A stretch of DNA of 59,049 nucleotides, the filler included. It is 6 parts of 6 records of this genome, joined end to end, with 100 filler letters (N's around TTAATTAATTAA, not from the genome) between each part and the next. Parts side by side here need not be neighbours in the genome. Positions count along the whole stretch, not along the records: positions 50,595 to 59,049 come from SRR2962707_4653; 5 more parts are not named here. One strand, 5' to 3'. The notes under the pieces are model-generated. The model did no database searches. It was not told the origin of the DNA and saw only the letters and a list, made by a program, of their open reading frames with translations. Each line of letters begins with the position of its first letter. Position 1 is the stretch's first letter. A program made the translations under genes and the position numbers. Positions 50,595 to 59,049 of this stretch are shown here, one piece after another.

Positions 50595-50627
50595 ATCTGA
50601 TGCTCTATCCTGCTGAGCTACGGGACC
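50595..50627 (-). tRNA. tRNA-Arg 5' fragment, cut just before the anticodon
   Basis: Reverse complement GGTCCCGTAGCTCAGCAGGATAGAGCATCAGAT; GGATAGAGC D-loop typical of tRNA-Arg. Confidence 0.8.
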
Positions 50628-50762
50628 ACGGCACGTCGCTTAGCAAATCGACGCCGTAAAGGAAACATCGTTTGCATGTCCGCGCCATGACGCCCACGTG
50701 CACCGCCCGGCATCGGGCCATAAAAGCTGGACAATTGACCGCCACGCCGGTGGCGATTCATC

Positions 50763-51107
50763 TCACGCCGCCCGGCCCAACGCCCGGCGGCTGCCTTCGA
50801 GATCCCAGACCAGCGTCATCACCGCCAACGGATCGCTCGGAGCGGCAAGCGACAGCATGCGCGCGCCACCGGAACTCAGTCTGCGGAATTTCTCGCGCGC
50901 CCGGTGATCGCCGATAAGATCCTCGGCGGTGCCGGCCCAGCCGATCACCCCATTGTCCTCGAGCGCATAAAGACGGCTCGGCGCCATGGCGACGCCGGCT
51001 TCTCTCTCGCGCTCCATAAGGTAGCGCCGACCGGACCGTCCGGCCCAAAGAACACTCGCCGTCGTCTCGCCGATGCCCGCTTCCACACTGTCTTTAAATC
51101 TGATCAT
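50763..51107 (-). CDS. Small hypothetical protein (114 aa), possibly a degenerate GIY-YIG-like fold
   Basis: GAGGG ribosome-binding site before ATG 51107; WAGRSGRRY...LYAL...WAGTAEDL pattern. Confidence 0.7.
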   Translation of the reverse strand: MIRFKDSVEAGIGETTASVLWAGRSGRRYLMEREREAGVAMAPSRLYALEDNGVIGWAGTAEDLIGDHRAREKFRRLSSGGARMLSLAAPSDPLAVMTLVWDLEGSRRALGRAA

Positions 51108-51200
51108 GGCCACCCTCGAAAACGGCCCCGCGCTGTCCCGCCCGAAAAAGGGCGAAAAATTGATTTGGCGACCGGCAGCAAGATCGAGCCGATCCAATAA

Positions 51201-51215
51201 GAACAAAATTAGAAC
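51201..51215 (-). promoter_or_regulatory. Perfect alphaproteobacterial LexA box
   Basis: GAAC-AAAATTA-GAAC (GTTC-N7-GTTC on the minus strand), about 95 nt upstream of the 51107 start. Confidence 0.8.
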
Positions 51216-51353
51216 AAATTGAAAGAAGCGTCAATCCCATGCACGTCCGAATCGTCCCATCCCTCGCAATCGATGTCAAGATATTGTGTCTCGATTACGG
51301 CGAAACACAATCTATCGCTTTTCGACGATCAAAATCACCAAAGGCGTGACAGG

Positions 51354-52163
51354 TCAGGACGAGGTGCCCGATTGGGCTTCGAGTTCGTTGAGACGGGCCC
51401 GCAGCCGGGGCGAAATCGGCCGGGCGAGGCCCTTTTGCGCGTCCGCGAGCACCATGGCGTTGGTCTCGGTCTCGATGCGTTCGATCAGCGTTTTCAAAAA
51501 TTGCTCGCCCGACAACCCGGGCATGATCGGTTCGAGAAACTTGGCCCGCGCCGTTCCGGGCCACAAAACGAGACTGTTGCGCCCCCAATAAAGCCCCGAG
51601 GTCAGCGCCACGGGCACCACCGGCACGCCCATGGCCAGGTACATCCGCACGATCCCCGAGCGGTAGGCCGGAACATCGAGCGGTGGCCGCCGCGTGCCTT
51701 CGGGAAAGATGATGACCCTGCAGCCCTTGTCCAGCGCCTCGCGCGCTTCGAGCGTCATGGCCGGCAGCGCATCCTTGCCCTTCTTACGGTCCACCGAAAT
51801 CGTATCCATCCACCGCGCCGCCCAGCCAAACAGCGGAATGTCGAGCAGTTCCTTTTTGGCGATGAACGCGGGACGCCCCACATAGGGCAGCACGGCAAAG
51901 ATGTCCCAGTCCGACTGGTGCTTGGCGCCGATTATGCACCCGCCCTCGGGAATATTTTCCGCCCCCGTTACCTCGGTCTTGATGCCCACCAGCCAGCGCA
52001 GGAAAAACAGAACCGCATTGTTCCAGTACTGCGCGAGGCTCCACCCAGCCGATTTCAGGTTCGGCGTCAGCTTGGCCATCAGCCCGATAATGACCGCCAT
52101 GACGATCGTGTGGACGAAAAAGAACAGATAAAACACCGCCGAGCGGATGGCCTGAACGATCAT
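51354..52163 (-). CDS. plsC: 1-acyl-sn-glycerol-3-phosphate (lysophospholipid) acyltransferase
   Basis: KHQSDWD (HxxxxD), AKKEL, IFPEGTR. Confidence 0.9.
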   Translation of the reverse strand: MIVQAIRSAVFYLFFFVHTIVMAVIIGLMAKLTPNLKSAGWSLAQYWNNAVLFFLRWLVGIKTEVTGAENIPEGGCIIGAKHQSDWDIFAVLPYVGRPAFIAKKELLDIPLFGWAARWMDTISVDRKKGKDALPAMTLEAREALDKGCRVIIFPEGTRRPPLDVPAYRSGIVRMYLAMGVPVVPVALTSGLYWGRNSLVLWPGTARAKFLEPIMPGLSGEQFLKTLIERIETETNAMVLADAQKGLARPISPRLRARLNELEAQSGTSS

Positions 52164-52191
52164 GAGCGCCGATATCCTTGATGCAGGAGCG

Positions 52192-53112
52192 TCAGGAGAT
52201 TTGAGAGAGGAAGCGCCTCACCGTCAAGCGTGAGGTGATCGCCGTCAGCCCGGCAATCACCAAAACGACGCCGATAATGCCCAATATCCCGCTGATCCCC
52301 AGCGCGAATTGCCCGAACAAAACCCCGAGCTGCGCGCTCGATTGCTCGGGCACCACGGTGCTCATTGCAGTGCCCGCCACGATGAAAAAGACGATTGCCG
52401 CCAGCCCGCCGACCAGCCCGCCCTTGAGCCCGAGCAACAGGAACCGCCCCTGGAATTCCCCGGCGATGAACTTGTTGGACGCCCCGATGAAGTGAAGCAC
52501 GTCGACGATCTCGCGGTTGGTTGACATCGTCCCGCGCGTCGCAAAGACAATGGCCAGCGCGGTCGCCACAAGGATCAGCGCCAGCACCAGTATCCCCGAA
52601 ACAACGATCGTCCCGGCCATCGTGTTGAGCTGCACCCGCCAGGCGGCGTGGGTTTCCAGCGTCGCCCCGGGAATGGCCGAAATCTCGCTCTCCAGCCGCG
52701 CGATATCTGCGGCATTGGGATCGCCAAGCTGCACGATCACCAGCCGGGGGATGGCCAGATCGGAAAGGTCCAGCCCCTCACCCAGCCAGGGCTGTAGCAA
52801 CTCTTCGCTCTCTTCGATCGTTACCACCCGCGCGCTCGCCACACCCGGCACCGCCTCGGACAGCGACACTGCCAGCCGCAGATTGGAGTCGATAACTTCC
52901 CCATCGAGCGGGCGCACCTGAATGGTCAACTCGCGCCCCACATCGGCCGACCAGCCCATCGCCGATTTCTGCACCAGCAGCACCCCACCGAACGTCACGC
53001 AGGAGAGGAACGTCATGATCCCGATCAGCAGCATCAGCGTGCGCCCGGCCACCGACTGGGCCGGCACGATCGGGTTGGGACGGGAAAAATTGAGCCTGAT
53101 CCCCTCACTCAT
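52192..53112 (-). CDS. ftsX: Cell-division ABC permease FtsX
   Basis: ELTIQV, LLQPWLG, NREIVDVLHFIGA; downstream of ftsE. Confidence 0.9.
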   Translation of the reverse strand: MSEGIRLNFSRPNPIVPAQSVAGRTLMLLIGIMTFLSCVTFGGVLLVQKSAMGWSADVGRELTIQVRPLDGEVIDSNLRLAVSLSEAVPGVASARVVTIEESEELLQPWLGEGLDLSDLAIPRLVIVQLGDPNAADIARLESEISAIPGATLETHAAWRVQLNTMAGTIVVSGILVLALILVATALAIVFATRGTMSTNREIVDVLHFIGASNKFIAGEFQGRFLLLGLKGGLVGGLAAIVFFIVAGTAMSTVVPEQSSAQLGVLFGQFALGISGILGIIGVVLVIAGLTAITSRLTVRRFLSQIS

Positions 53113-53764
53113 GGATGGCGAGCTCCCCATCGTTTAACAGCATGCGCGGATAGCCGAACTTTTCCAGCAGCGCCACCTCGTGGGTGGCCAGGATGATCGT
53201 CGTGCCCATCTTGTTGAGCTGTTCGAACAGATGCAGCAGCCGCTCGGAGAGTTCGGGGTCCACATTGCCCGTCGGCTCGTCGGCCAGCAGGATGTCGGGG
53301 TTGCCGATCACCGCCCGGGCAATCGCCGCGCGCTGTTTTTCCCCGCCCGAAAGCACCGCCGGGTGCGCGTCCATGCGGTCGCCCAGCCCCACCCAGTCGA
53401 GCAGTTCTTCGACGTTGCCGCGATAGCTTGCCTCGGCCTGCCCGCGCACCCGCAACGGCAGCGCGACATTTTCGAATGTGGTCAGATGATCGAGCAGCCG
53501 AAATTCCTGGAACACGATCCCGATATGGCGCCGCATCTGCAACAGCCTGTCGCGGTCGAGCGCCGTAACGTCTTCCCCGAACATCGAGACCGACCCGCGC
53601 GTCGGCTTGAGCGAAAGCAGCAACAGCCGCAGCAGCGAGGTCTTGCCCGACCCCGACGGTCCGGTGAGAAAATGGAACGAGCCCGGCGAGATCGCAAAGG
53701 TCAGGTCTTTGAGGATTTCCGGCCCGTGTCCGTATCGAAGGCCCACATTTTCGAACGCGATCAA
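53105..53764 (-). CDS. ftsE: Cell-division ATP-binding protein FtsE
   Basis: GPSGSGKT, IGIVFQEFRLL, LSGGEKQR, LADEPTGNVD. Confidence 0.95.
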   Translation of the reverse strand: MIAFENVGLRYGHGPEILKDLTFAISPGSFHFLTGPSGSGKTSLLRLLLLSLKPTRGSVSMFGEDVTALDRDRLLQMRRHIGIVFQEFRLLDHLTTFENVALPLRVRGQAEASYRGNVEELLDWVGLGDRMDAHPAVLSGGEKQRAAIARAVIGNPDILLADEPTGNVDPELSERLLHLFEQLNKMGTTIILATHEVALLEKFGYPRMLLNDGELAIHE

Positions 53765-53915
53765 ACCGCTTTTCTCCGCGAATCATCTGGCTGGAGGTTA
53801 TCCTACCAGCCATCACCCCCCAATGGCCGCATCAAGGCGGCGTTTCAAGAGTTTTAACCCCACCCGCATAGGGTTGGGCCAACGTTTTCGCTTAACCGCC
53901 ACCGGTCCCTCGCGT

Positions 53916-54779
53916 GTGATCATCACCTGCCCAAATTGCCAGACACGCTACAAGCTCGGCTCCGATGCGCTCAATGCGGCCGGCCGGCAGGTTCAGTGCG
54001 CCGCGTGTTCCGAACTCTGGTACGCAACCCCGGGCTTTCCCGAGCCCGCCGCCGCGCGGCGCGATCCCGATCCCAGCGACGATGAACTGATCTTCCGGGC
54101 CGATTCCGATACGCTGTTTTCCGCGGCCGACGAGGAGATGCTCGACGCCTCCTTCCTGCGCACACAGCCACCGGCCGCCAAACCCGCCCCCGATCATCCG
54201 CCCGCCGAGCCCGAGCCGGCCCCCGCCCCGCACGATCCGCGCCCGTCCATCGACAGTGCCGGCAACCGCGCCCGCATCGAGGCCCTGGCCCGCCGCCGCA
54301 ACGGCATGCTCGCCGCGCAGCCGATCGCACGCTTCCGCCGCATTTTCCGCATTGCGATCATTGCCCTGCTCATTGCCGGGGTGGCGGCGACCTTCGCGCT
54401 GCGCACCGAGATCGTCTCGGCAGTTCCCCAGCTCGACGGCCTCTATCGTCTTGCCGGTCTCAAGACCAATGTCATCGGACTTGATTTCACCGAAATTAAG
54501 ACTTTGCGAACCACGCAGAATGGAAACCCGGCCATTGTCGTAAACGCTAAGATTTCCAACATAACGAATCGCATAACCTTCGTGCCGTCGGTGCTGGTGA
54601 GCCTGCTCGATTCCGCCGGCACCATTGTTTACGAATGGACGGTAACGCCCGCCACACGGAACGTTCTGCCCGGCGATACATTGGCAATCGACGCGCAACT
54701 GATCGGTCCGCCGCAAGGCGTTACAAATATACGACTGAGCTTTGTCGACGGCCGCAACGGATCGGCGGCGGGGCAATAA
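53916..54779 (+). CDS. MJ0042-type zinc-ribbon / DUF3426-like membrane protein
   Basis: IITCPNCQTRY...VQCAAC, Pro-rich linker, TM helix, Ig-like C-terminus; GTG start. Confidence 0.88.
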   Translation: MIITCPNCQTRYKLGSDALNAAGRQVQCAACSELWYATPGFPEPAAARRDPDPSDDELIFRADSDTLFSAADEEMLDASFLRTQPPAAKPAPDHPPAEPEPAPAPHDPRPSIDSAGNRARIEALARRRNGMLAAQPIARFRRIFRIAIIALLIAGVAATFALRTEIVSAVPQLDGLYRLAGLKTNVIGLDFTEIKTLRTTQNGNPAIVVNAKISNITNRITFVPSVLVSLLDSAGTIVYEWTVTPATRNVLPGDTLAIDAQLIGPPQGVTNIRLSFVDGRNGSAAGQ

Positions 54780-54783
54780 AGAA

Positions 54784-54860
54784 TAAGAGCGTTTCGGCAA
54801 CGCGACAAAACAAAGACTGAGAGCATTGAAGCGATTCAACGAAGCGCTGAAATGCTCAAG
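54784..54860. repeat. Shortened Rhizobiales intergenic palindromic element (RIME/Bru-RS-like)
   Basis: AGAGCGTTTC...CGCGACAAAACAAAG...GAGAGCATT..GCGATTC...GAAATGCTC; resembles recalled element ends. Confidence 0.5.
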
Positions 54861-54878
54861 AGATAAGGGTAGAGCCCC

Positions 54879-55283
54879 ATGGCACGCATACTGGTGGCCG
54901 AAGACGATGAAAATGTCCGCGCCTTCGTCACGCGCGCGCTCGAAATGAGCGGCCACGAAGTGATCGACGCGTCCGACGGCGGCCTCGCCCTCGAAATCGC
55001 CAACGAGCATAACGGAAATTTCGACCTTCTGGTCTCCGACATCAAGATGCCCGTCATGGACGGCATAGGCCTGGCCCTCGCCATCGGCGCCCAATACCCC
55101 GCCATGACCATCCTCCTGATGACCGGCTTCGCCGACCAACGCGAACGCGCCCACGGCCTCGACGCCCTGATCTACGACGTCCTCGGCAAACCCTTCTCCC
55201 TCGCCCAACTGATCGAAAAAATCGACGACGCGCTGACGGGGAAGCCAGCGGAGATTATTCCATTGGCACGCTCGGCGCTGTGA
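54879..55283 (+). CDS. Single-domain response regulator (CpdR-like)
   Basis: MARILVAEDD, SDIKMPVMDG, MTGFA, KPF. Confidence 0.9.
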   Translation: MARILVAEDDENVRAFVTRALEMSGHEVIDASDGGLALEIANEHNGNFDLLVSDIKMPVMDGIGLALAIGAQYPAMTILLMTGFADQRERAHGLDALIYDVLGKPFSLAQLIEKIDDALTGKPAEIIPLARSAL

Positions 55284-55429
55284 GCGCCGAGACCGAACAG
55301 TATCCGTCCCGCCGAAACGCCATCAAGGCGCTCCAGAACGCCGTGACCGAAGCCATCGAAAGCGGGAAACCGCAGCCATTCGATGCCGTGACCTTCAAAC
55401 GGCAAATGCGGGAGCGACCAAACGCCTAA
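55280..55429 (+). pseudogene. 49-aa mini-ORF resembling the C-terminal half of ParD-type antitoxins (remnant or minimal antitoxin)
   Basis: GTGA overlap with the upstream stop; translates MSAETEQYPSRRNAIKALQNAVTEAIESGKPQPFDAVTFKRQMRERPNA; absent from the ORF track. Confidence 0.55.
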
Positions 55430-55481
55430 CATCGGTCCTTCTATAGGCTAGGTTGCCAGTGTAAACTTGCGTCTTTGGCAG

Positions 55482-56504
55482 TTACGCTGGATCAACTTTG
55501 ACAGTTACCTTCGTGATATTGAACTTGGCAACTCCGCCGCCGACAGCCTTCGACGGGTCAAACAGCGCTAGGTTCATGCCGTCACTGACCGAGCTTCGAT
55601 AAACTACCCCATCATAGCCGTTCTTTTTGATGAATTCGCAGAGATACTGGCTAGGAACATAGTCGATAGCGGCCCCGCGGGGTTGAACCGGACGGGTCAA
55701 CTCATCCCCAAGCCGCTCCAGAAACGCAATATCGGCACGCAGCTGACCGATCGCGCTCGCATCCGCCAAAAGGAAGGGGGATACAAGCTGGCGCGGATTA
55801 CGTAGATCAACACCACGCAGCGGTATAGGAATCGTGAAATCGGCTACGCAGGCCACTTCGCCAGTGTGGGGCCGGATTTCGGCAGCAGCCGTCTCGGGCA
55901 TGGAACCGAGATACAGATATGGAATGCCGGGCGGATTCGCGCGCCCGTGCGATGCAAGACGCTTAGGCGGTGCGCCCATTTCGCCAATAGGGTGAGCCGC
56001 GCCGTTTGCCAGGATGCGCGCACGAAACCACTTGGCAGGCATGTCGTCGGTAGGCAAATGACCGAGCAATTCTCGGAGCCGGTCCGCGTCCAGAACCTCG
56101 TCCAAGAAATACCGGTTTTTCCACATCAGTTCATCTCGGAGATTTTCCCATTGCGCGAGGGCCTTACTGTCATAGGCGGACGACGGAACGAACGGCTTGC
56201 GAACGATATCGCCATCATCGAGAATCTCGGCGAGTAGCTCCTTCGAATGCGCTACGTCCATTGCAGCATGGCTAAACAGGTGCCAGTCCTCTTTCATCCA
56301 TTCGACTAGCGTCCTGCCGGCGGAATCGATCTCATAGACCCCCACGAGCAGCTCGAAGACGTCAGCGAGCGCGCGCGGTTCAACCAAGACGACGCCCTTC
56401 GATCTGCAGAAGTCGCAGTCCCCCGTTCCATGGCTGAGGGAAGGTATGATGTCGCGACGAAGGCCGCGATCGTCGAAGCATTCCGGGCAGCAGGACTTAG
56501 GCAT
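55482..56504 (-). CDS. RES-domain protein (NAD+-consuming toxin family) with a Cys4 N-terminal domain
   Basis: CCPECF...CDFC; FRAR, GRANPPGIPYLY, AAAEIRP, YVPSQYLCEFIK..GYDGVVYRSS. Confidence 0.9.
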   Translation of the reverse strand: MPKSCCPECFDDRGLRRDIIPSLSHGTGDCDFCRSKGVVLVEPRALADVFELLVGVYEIDSAGRTLVEWMKEDWHLFSHAAMDVAHSKELLAEILDDGDIVRKPFVPSSAYDSKALAQWENLRDELMWKNRYFLDEVLDADRLRELLGHLPTDDMPAKWFRARILANGAAHPIGEMGAPPKRLASHGRANPPGIPYLYLGSMPETAAAEIRPHTGEVACVADFTIPIPLRGVDLRNPRQLVSPFLLADASAIGQLRADIAFLERLGDELTRPVQPRGAAIDYVPSQYLCEFIKKNGYDGVVYRSSVSDGMNLALFDPSKAVGGGVAKFNITKVTVKVDPA

Positions 56505-56515
56505 GCTATTGCCCG

Positions 56516-57457
56516 CTATTTAGAGAAAAAGTCGACGAGCGTCTCGATGTGGTGGCGCATCGACAGCTTCTTGACCTGCCCCAGCCCAGGGAAATGGCCC
56601 TTTTCATGTAACTCGCGAAATTCGGCGATGGCTGTGCTAGAAAACAGCTTGGAAGTTCCCGAATCTAGTTGAGCGATCAGCTTTGCCAATGCCTGAGCAA
56701 ATTTACCGCCGGGGTCAGTTGGCGTGTCCCTTGTCGTCGACACGAAATGATAGATATACATCACCTCATCCTTGCCGGGATCAAGGAAAGTTAGGTGGAT
56801 CGCAACGGCATAGGCGGGGCCGCCCCCTTCTATATAGTCGTCGCCCACAATCAGGAAATCGCCGAACCCATCCATGTCTTCCTCCTCGAATGTGAGGTGG
56901 AGGTCTGAGAACAATTCGACAGGCGGATAATCGGCATTACGTCGGCGTTCGAATCCGTCGCGCAGAAGGACTCGCATTTTACTGCCCTTCAAGTGCTTGC
57001 GGTAGAGTTTGTGGCAGTGTCTTTCGAAGAAGACGTGTCGTGTTTCTGGCAGGTCACTACCGAGAGCTTCTGCCAGTGCCTTAGCTTCGGTAAAGCCCGC
57101 ATGAATGAATACAGGGCGATGCGCTTGGTGCTGGGAGTGACAGCCGACCGCCTCACCGACATTCATGTCATGGGTGAGCAAGATGCCTGCGCTTATGCCA
57201 TCCTTGTCTAGAAACCCATTCCCGAGCAGTGTCGAGATGCTCACACCGTCCTCGGCATGGTCACCGTGTGCCGGATTGATTATTACAATCGCCTCACCAC
57301 CGGCGTCGCATATCGCGGTCAGCGTACGCTCGAGCCCTTTAAGTGCCTCCCGCACCGGCTCAATAATGGGAACAAACCTCGATTCCGCCATCAGCGCAGC
57401 AGTCTCGCGAATGGCGATCAGCTCGAATTGCTTGCCGCGGAAATAGGGGTGGTACAT
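56516..57457 (-). CDS. sce7725-type / Beta-like protein
   Basis: MYHPYFRGKQFELIAIRE, PIIEPV, GFGDF, AVAIHLT, GLGQVKKLSMRHH; family assignment from memory. Confidence 0.8.
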   Translation of the reverse strand: MYHPYFRGKQFELIAIRETAALMAESRFVPIIEPVREALKGLERTLTAICDAGGEAIVIINPAHGDHAEDGVSISTLLGNGFLDKDGISAGILLTHDMNVGEAVGCHSQHQAHRPVFIHAGFTEAKALAEALGSDLPETRHVFFERHCHKLYRKHLKGSKMRVLLRDGFERRRNADYPPVELFSDLHLTFEEEDMDGFGDFLIVGDDYIEGGGPAYAVAIHLTFLDPGKDEVMYIYHFVSTTRDTPTDPGGKFAQALAKLIAQLDSGTSKLFSSTAIAEFRELHEKGHFPGLGQVKKLSMRHHIETLVDFFSK

Positions 57458-57460
57458 GTG

Positions 57461-58408
57461 CTAGGTCCAGGCCACGGTTGCGTCGAGCGGCGTATCAATC
57501 GCTTCAACGATACGGTCATGATCTGCGCGGCGCACTGGGATCGACAAGGCAGCGGCATGCAGCGAGCGCGGGAGGCTATCGAGAAGGCGAGCCAAAGGCG
57601 CGAGATCGCGGGTGCGCTTTAAGGTCCGCACCATTTGGTGATGAAGTACAACAGGATCAAGATCTGCGAACAGCGCCCGCATTGAGGCGTGGCGCTGTGT
57701 ATTGGGGACGTCAGGAACTGCGATGTCGAGCGCTTTCAGGACAGCCGCAGCTTCCGTTGACCTCAGTGATTCGAACACGGTAGCCGGGCAAATTCGTTCG
57801 GGGCAGTCCACCGCGTCGCGCACCATCGTAATGTGGTACCTGTGCGACAAGCACAAAATACCGACGTCCTCAGGAAGGACAAGCTGGACTCCGTCTACAT
57901 GGCGTTCGCTGACAACGACGTTCACCGAAGCGAACACACGTTTGTAGTTTTCAACTTGGTTAGCCAGACGAGAGAGCGAATCGCGTTCGGATTTGATCTC
58001 GTAAACGGTCGAAGTTCCGTTGAGAATGACAAGGTCGGCCTTGCATGATCCGGCACGAAATTCGTTGAGCATTGAGGCAGTACGCAACGAGTGTTTGCCC
58101 ATCAGGATCTTTTGGGTCAGCGCCGACCGGTATATGTATTCATCACGTAGCCCAGCAATCCGGAGAATCGAGAAGGCAGACTCGAAGGCGTCCCCTACTG
58201 TGGCCCCCTCCGCGCAACGCCCAGCGACGCGGGTCTCGTCGAGAAGACGACGGAACAACGCGGAACGCCCCTTCCGGGCCAGTTGCTGGAATACTGCCGA
58301 AGAAAACAAGCGCGTCAGCGCTGAAAGTTCTAATGTACCGACTGTCACCGTTCCCCCGATGCTGAGCCTGACGCGAAATCGCAACAGACTAACCTGCTTG
58401 CGCCACAA
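57461..58408 (-). CDS. sce7726-type PD-(D/E)xK nuclease-like protein
   Basis: RDEYIYR, NEF...KADLV...YEIKSERDSLSRL..QV..Y; alternative GTG start at 58348. Confidence 0.82.
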   Translation of the reverse strand: MWRKQVSLLRFRVRLSIGGTVTVGTLELSALTRLFSSAVFQQLARKGRSALFRRLLDETRVAGRCAEGATVGDAFESAFSILRIAGLRDEYIYRSALTQKILMGKHSLRTASMLNEFRAGSCKADLVILNGTSTVYEIKSERDSLSRLANQVENYKRVFASVNVVVSERHVDGVQLVLPEDVGILCLSHRYHITMVRDAVDCPERICPATVFESLRSTEAAAVLKALDIAVPDVPNTQRHASMRALFADLDPVVLHHQMVRTLKRTRDLAPLARLLDSLPRSLHAAALSIPVRRADHDRIVEAIDTPLDATVAWT

Positions 58409-58544
58409 GGCAAATCAATAATGCCGGCCTCTAAGCTGTGGCACCGCTTGTGGCTCCCAAATACGTCATCAAAAGAATTAGATTTCTCTAGAAGCAGACG
58501 TGTGGGAAACCACCAATATTAGCCCGTACCGGATTTAGGAGGTC

Positions 58545-59049
58545 TTAAGCCTCATCCCTCACCCACTCCGGCACACTATCCAGCCCAATCAACTCATCCA
58601 GCGTCTGCCGCGGTCTGATCGTGTGCCACTTGCCCCCATCGACAAGCACTTCGGCCACCAGCGGGCGCGTATTATAGGTCGAACTCATCACTGCCCCATA
58701 AGCCCCCGCACTCATCACCACCAAAAGATCACCCTCGGCCACCTCAGCGATGTCCCGGTCCAGCCCCAGATAATCGCCCGTCTCGCACACCGGCCCCACG
58801 ATATCGGCGTGGATGGTTTTGGCCCCCGCACCCGCTTCCTGCACCGGCAAAATGTCATGATGGGCCTCGTAAAGCGTTGGCCGGATCAGATCGTTCATGC
58901 CCGCATCGACGATCACAAAACTCTTCTTGTCGGTCCGCTTGACGTATTCGACCCGCGTCACCATCACCCCCGCATTGCCGGCAATCAGCCGACCTGGCTC
59001 AAGGATCAGCCGGCAGCCCAGCGGATCGACATGGCGGCGCATCAGATCG
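58545..59049 (-). CDS. lysA: Diaminopimelate decarboxylase, 3' part only
   Basis: LEPGRLI, DAGMNDLIRP.LY, VGPVCETGD, GAYGAVMSSTYNTRP. Confidence 0.96.
   Translation of the reverse strand, partial: DLMRRHVDPLGCRLILEPGRLIAGNAGVMVTRVEYVKRTDKKSFVIVDAGMNDLIRPTLYEAHHDILPVQEAGAGAKTIHADIVGPVCETGDYLGLDRDIAEVAEGDLLVVMSAGAYGAVMSSTYNTRPLVAEVLVDGGKWHTIRPRQTLDELIGLDSVPEWVRDEA

Follow-up and report, generated by a model that had tools for sequence, protein, structure and literature searches.

A mobile three-gene cassette of a predicted nuclease, a TIM-barrel protein and a RES enzyme is probably an anti-phage system of the gop-beta-cII and aRES kind

Do three closely packed genes, for a predicted nuclease, a TIM-barrel protein and a RES enzyme, form an anti-phage system, and is that system an undescribed one, as an earlier note on this DNA had suggested? 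The window (the whole stretch of DNA analysed, 59,049 nucleotides long) consists of pieces joined by N spacers, and the context of the cassette is the last piece, positions 50595-59049; between 5676 and 50594, five pairs of 44-nt N runs separate the joined pieces. Three open, co-oriented frames with gaps of 3 and 11 nt are present on the minus strand as first described (Table 1), and their coordinates stand with the exception of the gene 1 start: homologue coverage of gene 1 reaches 1.0 only from residue 21 and the Shinella orthologue, which is 86% identical, is annotated at 295 aa, so translation most likely begins at the GTG at 58348 and not at the TTG at 58408. The genes are also less GC-biased than their flanks, as had been claimed (GC 0.55-0.58 versus 0.61-0.64 in six flanking genes, and GC3 0.62-0.64 versus 0.73-0.83). 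Comparison with orthologues on a Shinella plasmid, the only one of four comparisons that was not near or at saturation, gave dN/dS values of 0.10, 0.04 and 0.05 for genes 1, 2 and 3, respectively. The three genes are thus intact and under purifying selection and the operon is real; the dN/dS values and the conserved gene order (below) rule out a frame artefact or pseudogene. Misassembly is ruled out by contigs of two sequencing runs, one of which (run X1, possibly the source of the window) covers 55083-59045, while the other (run X3, from another study) bridges the junction between gene 1 and lysA. No sigma-70 consensus was found upstream of the cassette, and a promoter and terminator scan gave results at chance level.

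Table 1. Positions of the cassette genes and surrounding features in the window.
Feature	Position	Strand	Description
Gene 1	57461-58348	-	sce7726/P4 cII-family, predicted PD-(D/E)xK nuclease, 295 aa from probable GTG
Gene 1, longest frame	57461-58408	-	315 aa from TTG
Gene 2	56516-57457	-	sce7725-family TIM-barrel protein, probable divergent P4 beta (TIM-B) relative, 313 aa
Gene 3	55482-56504	-	aRES-like; Cys-rich HEPN/RES-NTD1-like N-terminus and RES NAD+ phosphorylase domain, 340 aa
Upstream non-coding stretch past lysA stop	58349-58544	-	Probable promoter/ribosome-binding region, inferred
Entire insert	55284-58544		Variable cargo site between the convergent 3' ends of a response regulator gene and lysA

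The nuclease signature reported for gene 1 is genuine: the residues of its E..D..ExK motif (E96, D105, E117 and K119 in the 295-aa form) are invariant in 52 aligned homologues, and nuclease activity is predicted from this motif, which we take to be of the PD-(D/E)xK type. The gene scores 181.8 bits against the NCBIfam family sce7726 (NF033832, cut-off 70), and the cII protein of satellite phage P4, itself annotated as sce7726, scores 151.4 bits with the same model; the two proteins are 32% identical across 109 aa (E 2e-11). By these profile scores gene 1 and P4 cII fall in one NCBIfam family, a kinship that had been missed earlier. Among the three genes only gene 1 is recognised by PADLOC 2.0 (2023), whose cII model matches its residues 101-191 (E 3e-19); genes 2 and 3 have no match there. 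No Pfam family names gene 1, a sequence search of solved structures returned no match for gene 1 or gene 2 at E ≤ 1, and profile searches of solved structures gave nothing useful (a match of the gene 1 profile to CagY was discarded as a helical-repeat artefact). Because gene 1 is a member of the cII family, genes 1 and 2 correspond to parts of the validated gop-beta-cII system, which protects against lambda and P1 (Rousset et al. 2022, PMC9122126).

The description of gene 2 as Beta-like stands at the level of families and fails in pairwise BLAST and in Pfam searches with gene 2 itself. Gene 2 scores 345.5 bits against the NCBIfam family sce7725 (NF033831, cut-off 60), it has no pairwise BLAST similarity to P4 beta and no match to PF14350 at E ≤ 5, and P4 beta in turn does not match NF033831. 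When the gene 2 family was aligned to the beta family with hhalign, the probability was 79% (E 1.5e-5), a result of moderate strength in which an N-terminal YxPxLR..E motif is paired, as is GFGDF with IYGDH, whereas the residues that each family conserves are in part different. The nearest named Atlas cluster is also beta (score 0.76, taken as a lead only). With moderate strength, these comparisons point to a TIM barrel that is distantly homologous to P4 beta and belongs to a separate sce7725 clade. In the structure model, gene 2 folds as a TIM barrel whose polar core is conserved, so the protein may be an enzyme rather than a guard that simply binds. The matches listed in three fold searches (up to 50) were other TIM barrels with no TGT or DpdA among them, but since TIM barrels fill the matches listed, this absence excludes nothing. 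Similarly, an hhalign comparison with a profile of 29 close TGT sequences gave a probability of less than 1% for gene 2 and canonical beta alike, and therefore has no power.

In gene 3 the RES domain is intact, as had been stated (PF08808, 69 bits, residues 169-318): R161, R163, R188, N190, Y198, E209, Y282, Q286, S304 and N311 do not vary among 57 homologues. Its best fold matches are MbcT and NatT, and a sequence search of solved structures gave chance matches only. The N-terminus contains five cysteines that are invariant in the 57 close homologues. In HMMER searches gene 3 itself has no match to PF18870, and 16 of the 57 homologues match it weakly (best 1.3e-4). A profile of the 150 N-terminal residues recovers three plasmid RES proteins by their N-termini (29, 29 and 50 bits, shuffled sequences scoring 7 or less), which have no sce7725 neighbour and share with gene 3 all ten RES-domain residues checked; one of them passes the PF18870 cut-off. 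On the same question, an Atlas score of 0.89 is treated as a lead. This part of gene 3 looks HEPN/RES-NTD1-like, so that the protein would have the two-domain layout of aRES, an anti-phage NAD+ phosphorylase described in January 2026 (Osterman et al., 10.64898/2026.01.28.702374). According to that report aRES proteins are 300-600 aa long and combine RES with PF18870 (HHsearch probability >80%), deplete NAD+, block phages, and work without a partner gene. A classical RES-Xre pair is ruled out: the flanking genes encode a response regulator and a lysA-type decarboxylase, no Xre/MbcA-type gene is adjacent (again as claimed before), and no Xre/MbcA/ParS antitoxin recurs beside the trio in 80 loci.

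Relatives of gene 3 without any sce7725 gene are found on plasmids (317 plasmid records versus 15; three regions were read), and this, together with the partnerless aRES, suggests that gene 3 may not need gene 2. An anti-phage reading of opposite logic, which we think rather unlikely, makes gene 2 an activator or amplifier and not an antitoxin, with gene 3 either gated by its own N-terminal domain or turned on by a nucleotide synthesised by gene 2 from gene 1 products. It accords with the reported protection by aRES alone (10.64898/2026.01.28.702374), with the Cys-rich N-terminal domain common to trio-encoded and beta-less RES proteins, and with the co-transcription of the three genes in one direction, unlike in P4. 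Against it, the only genetic evidence on the beta family, as recounted in PMC9122126 (citing Ghisotti 1990), is inhibition of a toxin, Gop being toxic without beta. On IncFII plasmids of Klebsiella and E. coli (L249:2989-4362 and L250:2989-4362) we also observed an aRES-like gene of 457 aa, with parAB plus two small genes on one side and umuDC on the other.

To see how faithfully the three genes travel together, we took the best 80 of the 115 genome loci that a search with gene 2 had found. The gene order is the same in 79 of the 80, with gene 1 upstream in all 80 and gene 3 downstream in 79; the single exception (L056) has broken genes, and four more loci have a two-piece match in one gene. 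The flanks are unrelated across these loci, as no flanking family recurs in more than 10, and the named hosts are Alpha-, Beta- and Gammaproteobacteria, Acidobacteria, Nitrospinae, Verrucomicrobia and one Microbacterium. In 104 further loci, ten of them near-identical viral copies, gene 1 lies directly upstream in 92/98 and gene 3 downstream in 87/94 of those with room to tell. The trio is still together at 24-35% identity, and the metagenome scan took in the best 80 of 530 relatives, all at least 59% identical, and so covered close variants. The cassette has a sporadic distribution: among 401 gammaproteobacterial genomes, 3 (one being the search centre) pass the cut-off, and canonical beta was found in 5 of 400 genomes of the same class. 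Distant sce7725 genes occur with the nuclease alone in swapped order beside an IrrE-like peptidase gene, beside a GNAT gene, or beside neither partner (L209).

Several such loci deserve description in their own right. Viral contigs (L176:1521-5270, also L177, L178 and L180) have sce7725 followed by sce7726 and no RES gene, and in L176 the pair is preceded by a repressor-like gene, an IrrE-like peptidase gene and an HSDR_N nuclease gene. An Enterococcus faecium plasmid (L183:5306-7513) carries a 229-aa gene of unknown function, sce7725 and GNAT with no sce7726, and the same neighbourhood is present in an unverified "Listeria phage" record (L186) that may be bacterial DNA. In L245 and L248 (G465:C224) there are two units in tandem, and in each of them a probable metallopeptidase gene precedes a canonical beta gene. 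Truncated sce7725 plus sce7726, with no RES gene found downstream, in L179:3501-3962, L198, L174 and L056 represent decayed or partial cassettes.

These patterns of co-occurrence bear on another anti-phage reading, one that we consider unlikely, in which genes 1 and 2 are a restriction-modification-like core and gene 3 is an exchangeable back-up, killing the cell if that pair is inhibited. The TIM barrel would exchange or remove a host DNA base (as DpdA-type transglycosylases do) and the nuclease would cut unmarked DNA. A closely allied form, which we hold to be equally doubtful, makes gene 2 a putative base-transfer enzyme that marks host DNA or makes a licensing nucleotide, gene 1 its restriction partner, and gene 3 a guard that would destroy NAD+ once a phage blocks the gene 1/gene 2 pair. 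If true, this would be an unrecognised restriction-modification chemistry with a built-in back-up and would explain the biochemistry of P4 beta and cII. The restriction-modification-like core is opposed by sce7725/beta loci that have no nearby sce7726 (L183, L186, L209 and three of the five beta genomes) and by gene 1 tracking gene 2 less tightly than gene 3 does; Spearman correlations of identity to the window across 77 loci are 0.86 for genes 2 and 3, and 0.63 and 0.60 for gene 1 versus either, a difference that is only a hint because the loci are related. P4 mutants without both beta and gop grow with cII intact, which also counts against such a core.

The insert, on which the response regulator gene and lysA converge from either side, contains the trio and no other gene, integrase included, and among short repeats none at its ends is att-like. 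In 20 related genomes the trio is absent from this site, which is empty in 7, occupied by other cargo in 11, and not callable in 2. The cargo in relatives (beta-lactamase-like, EamA/OpuAC fusion, phospholipase D and HSDR_N nuclease genes, among others) is mostly non-defence, and such a mixture marks the site as a general hotspot and not a defence island. Across the related Hyphomicrobiales examined (L201-L208 and L210-L221) the gap holds 0.6-4.7 kb of unrelated genes. Window positions 55100-55416 are 86% identical over 317 nt to L213:7886-8205, extending about 130 nt beyond the response regulator stop; this similarity is present only in the relative whose site carries the HSDR_N-type nuclease gene, and an overlapping 86-codon frame (55172-55432, minus strand) is probably not a gene.

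Are other defence genes found beside the trio elsewhere? Of the 530 ORFs of at least 200 aa that neighbour the trio in the 80 loci, we scanned the nearest 101, all no more than 825 nt away, and compared them with 79 control ORFs from 20 arbitrarily chosen 7-kb stretches of 19 Hyphomicrobiales genomes and one gammaproteobacterium. Enrichment was found: PADLOC matches at E ≤ 1e-25 number 14/101 among neighbours versus 1/79 in the controls (Fisher p 0.002, or 0.003 without three generic neighbour matches and the control's primase-like match), although the controls are core-rich and unmatched to the neighbours by taxon or mobile DNA. The matches are type I and III restriction, KwaB, BilD, Drt8, DrmD, dCTP deaminase, TmtA, three PDC candidates and three generic ones. 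The other 87 nearest neighbours have no PADLOC match, and 11 of the 101 are mobility genes, so mobile islands in general may account for some of the enrichment. The presence of the trio on plasmids, integrative elements and variable chromosomal sites, and the fact that the RES toxins MbcT, NatT and ParT belong to toxin-antitoxin pairs, agree with a toxin-antitoxin module of three parts, for addiction or stress, that would stabilise mobile DNA and play no part against phages. We judge such a module very unlikely in view of the defence-gene enrichment and the reported anti-phage activity of both of the closest tested systems (PMC9122126; 10.64898/2026.01.28.702374).

What was observed directly is the families to which the three genes belong, the intactness of their catalytic residues, their strict co-inheritance and mobility, and the defence genes in their neighbourhood, and the trio very probably makes up an anti-phage system combining parts of two proven defence systems; the anti-phage readings taken together are highly probable. 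The cassette looks like a gop-beta-cII-type module in which an aRES-like NAD+ phosphorylase has taken the place of Gop and the nuclease gene points the same way as the other two. We lean, by analogy, towards a mobile three-gene abortive-infection system of the gop-beta-cII/TIM-B kind in which gene 3 kills, gene 2 restrains and gene 1 is a second effector. From its family, gene 3 would be the killing effector, splitting NAD+ with phosphate to nicotinamide and ADP-ribose-1''-phosphate as aRES, MbcT and NatT do, and gene 1, likewise from its family, would cut DNA. Gene 2 would keep gene 3, and perhaps gene 1 too, off in uninfected cells as beta does Gop, probably through an enzymatic product or modification and not by binding alone. 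If a phage protein blocked gene 2, or took away its substrate or product, NAD+ destruction would be released and the infected cell would arrest before the phage multiplies. The general model of the earlier note, a beta-like negative regulator of toxic effectors, is supported by P4 beta and Gop and by the TIM-B prediction (10.64898/2026.10.19.760177). The closer tracking between genes 2 and 3 is a hint in favour of our preferred explanation. Counted against it are the partnerless aRES, the gene 3 relatives that lack an sce7725 gene, the PF14350 mismatch of gene 2 and the mostly non-defence cargo at the site.

After decades of genetics we know of no biochemical function for P4 beta or cII. The cassette couples a beta-related barrel to an effector whose predicted activity is easily measured (NAD+ loss and ADP-ribose-1''-phosphate gain), and is therefore a good vehicle for testing the predicted enzymatic silencing of toxins by beta-family proteins. 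It further suggests that in several phyla a multi-gene system has incorporated an enzyme of the aRES type, which had been reported as stand-alone, and it gives the unnamed sce7725/sce7726 pair a testable function; in the literature text available the two families are listed without function.

How does the cassette compare with known systems? Like gop-beta-cII, it has a cII/sce7726-family nuclease gene and a beta-related TIM-barrel gene beside a third, toxic gene. Unlike it, the cassette has a 340-aa RES enzyme in place of Gop (a 133-aa predicted membrane toxin), its genes are all co-oriented whereas P4 cII converges on gop-beta, its gene 2 lies in the sce7725 clade with neither a PF14350 match nor pairwise beta similarity, and it sits between chromosomal genes and not in a P4 satellite. 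True gop-beta-cII membership is ruled out by the absence of gop, the lack of a PF14350 match and the different layout. The P4 system is reported to be triggered by the phage protein orf184 (10.1101/2023.04.06.535777), and two other papers, in the text available, only name it (PMC11754643 and 10.1101/2024.10.26.620412). Strict aRES membership is also ruled out; gene 3 resembles aRES in its length, in a RES domain with R, E and S and probably in a HEPN/RES-NTD1-like N-terminus, but aRES is described as stand-alone and gene 3 closes an operon of three genes that is strictly conserved. The MbcT-MbcA, NatT-NatR, ParT-ParS and RES-Xre pairs differ in having an Xre/MbcA-type antitoxin and in lacking the extra 140-aa N-terminal domain of gene 3. 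The closest counterpart is the TIM-B class in an October 2026 preprint of Li, Burroughs and Aravind (10.64898/2026.10.19.760177), a prediction in which beta is a TGT-like TIM barrel that represses swappable effectors, including a RES toxin, a GNAT and a nuclease with helical extensions and a C-terminal HeH domain. The cassette shares with it a beta-homologous TIM barrel coupled to RES and nuclease genes, and GNAT- and metallopeptidase-linked forms were also found in the relatives here. It differs in that the preprint, in the text compared, defines the class by PF14350 without naming sce7725 and gives the two-effector form a convergent nuclease, although its Figure 6B may show the trio. Judged by its gene families, the cassette falls inside the predicted TIM-B class. 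The original label "undescribed" thus holds in part: no laboratory test of the trio was found in the literature searched, which took in few subscription papers, while TIM-B systems with RES and nuclease effectors had been predicted. The prior prediction of that class and the prior anti-phage report on aRES rule out a categorically new system. The operon is widespread as well as real and intact, is probably anti-phage, and most likely works as a hybrid of gop-beta-cII and aRES.
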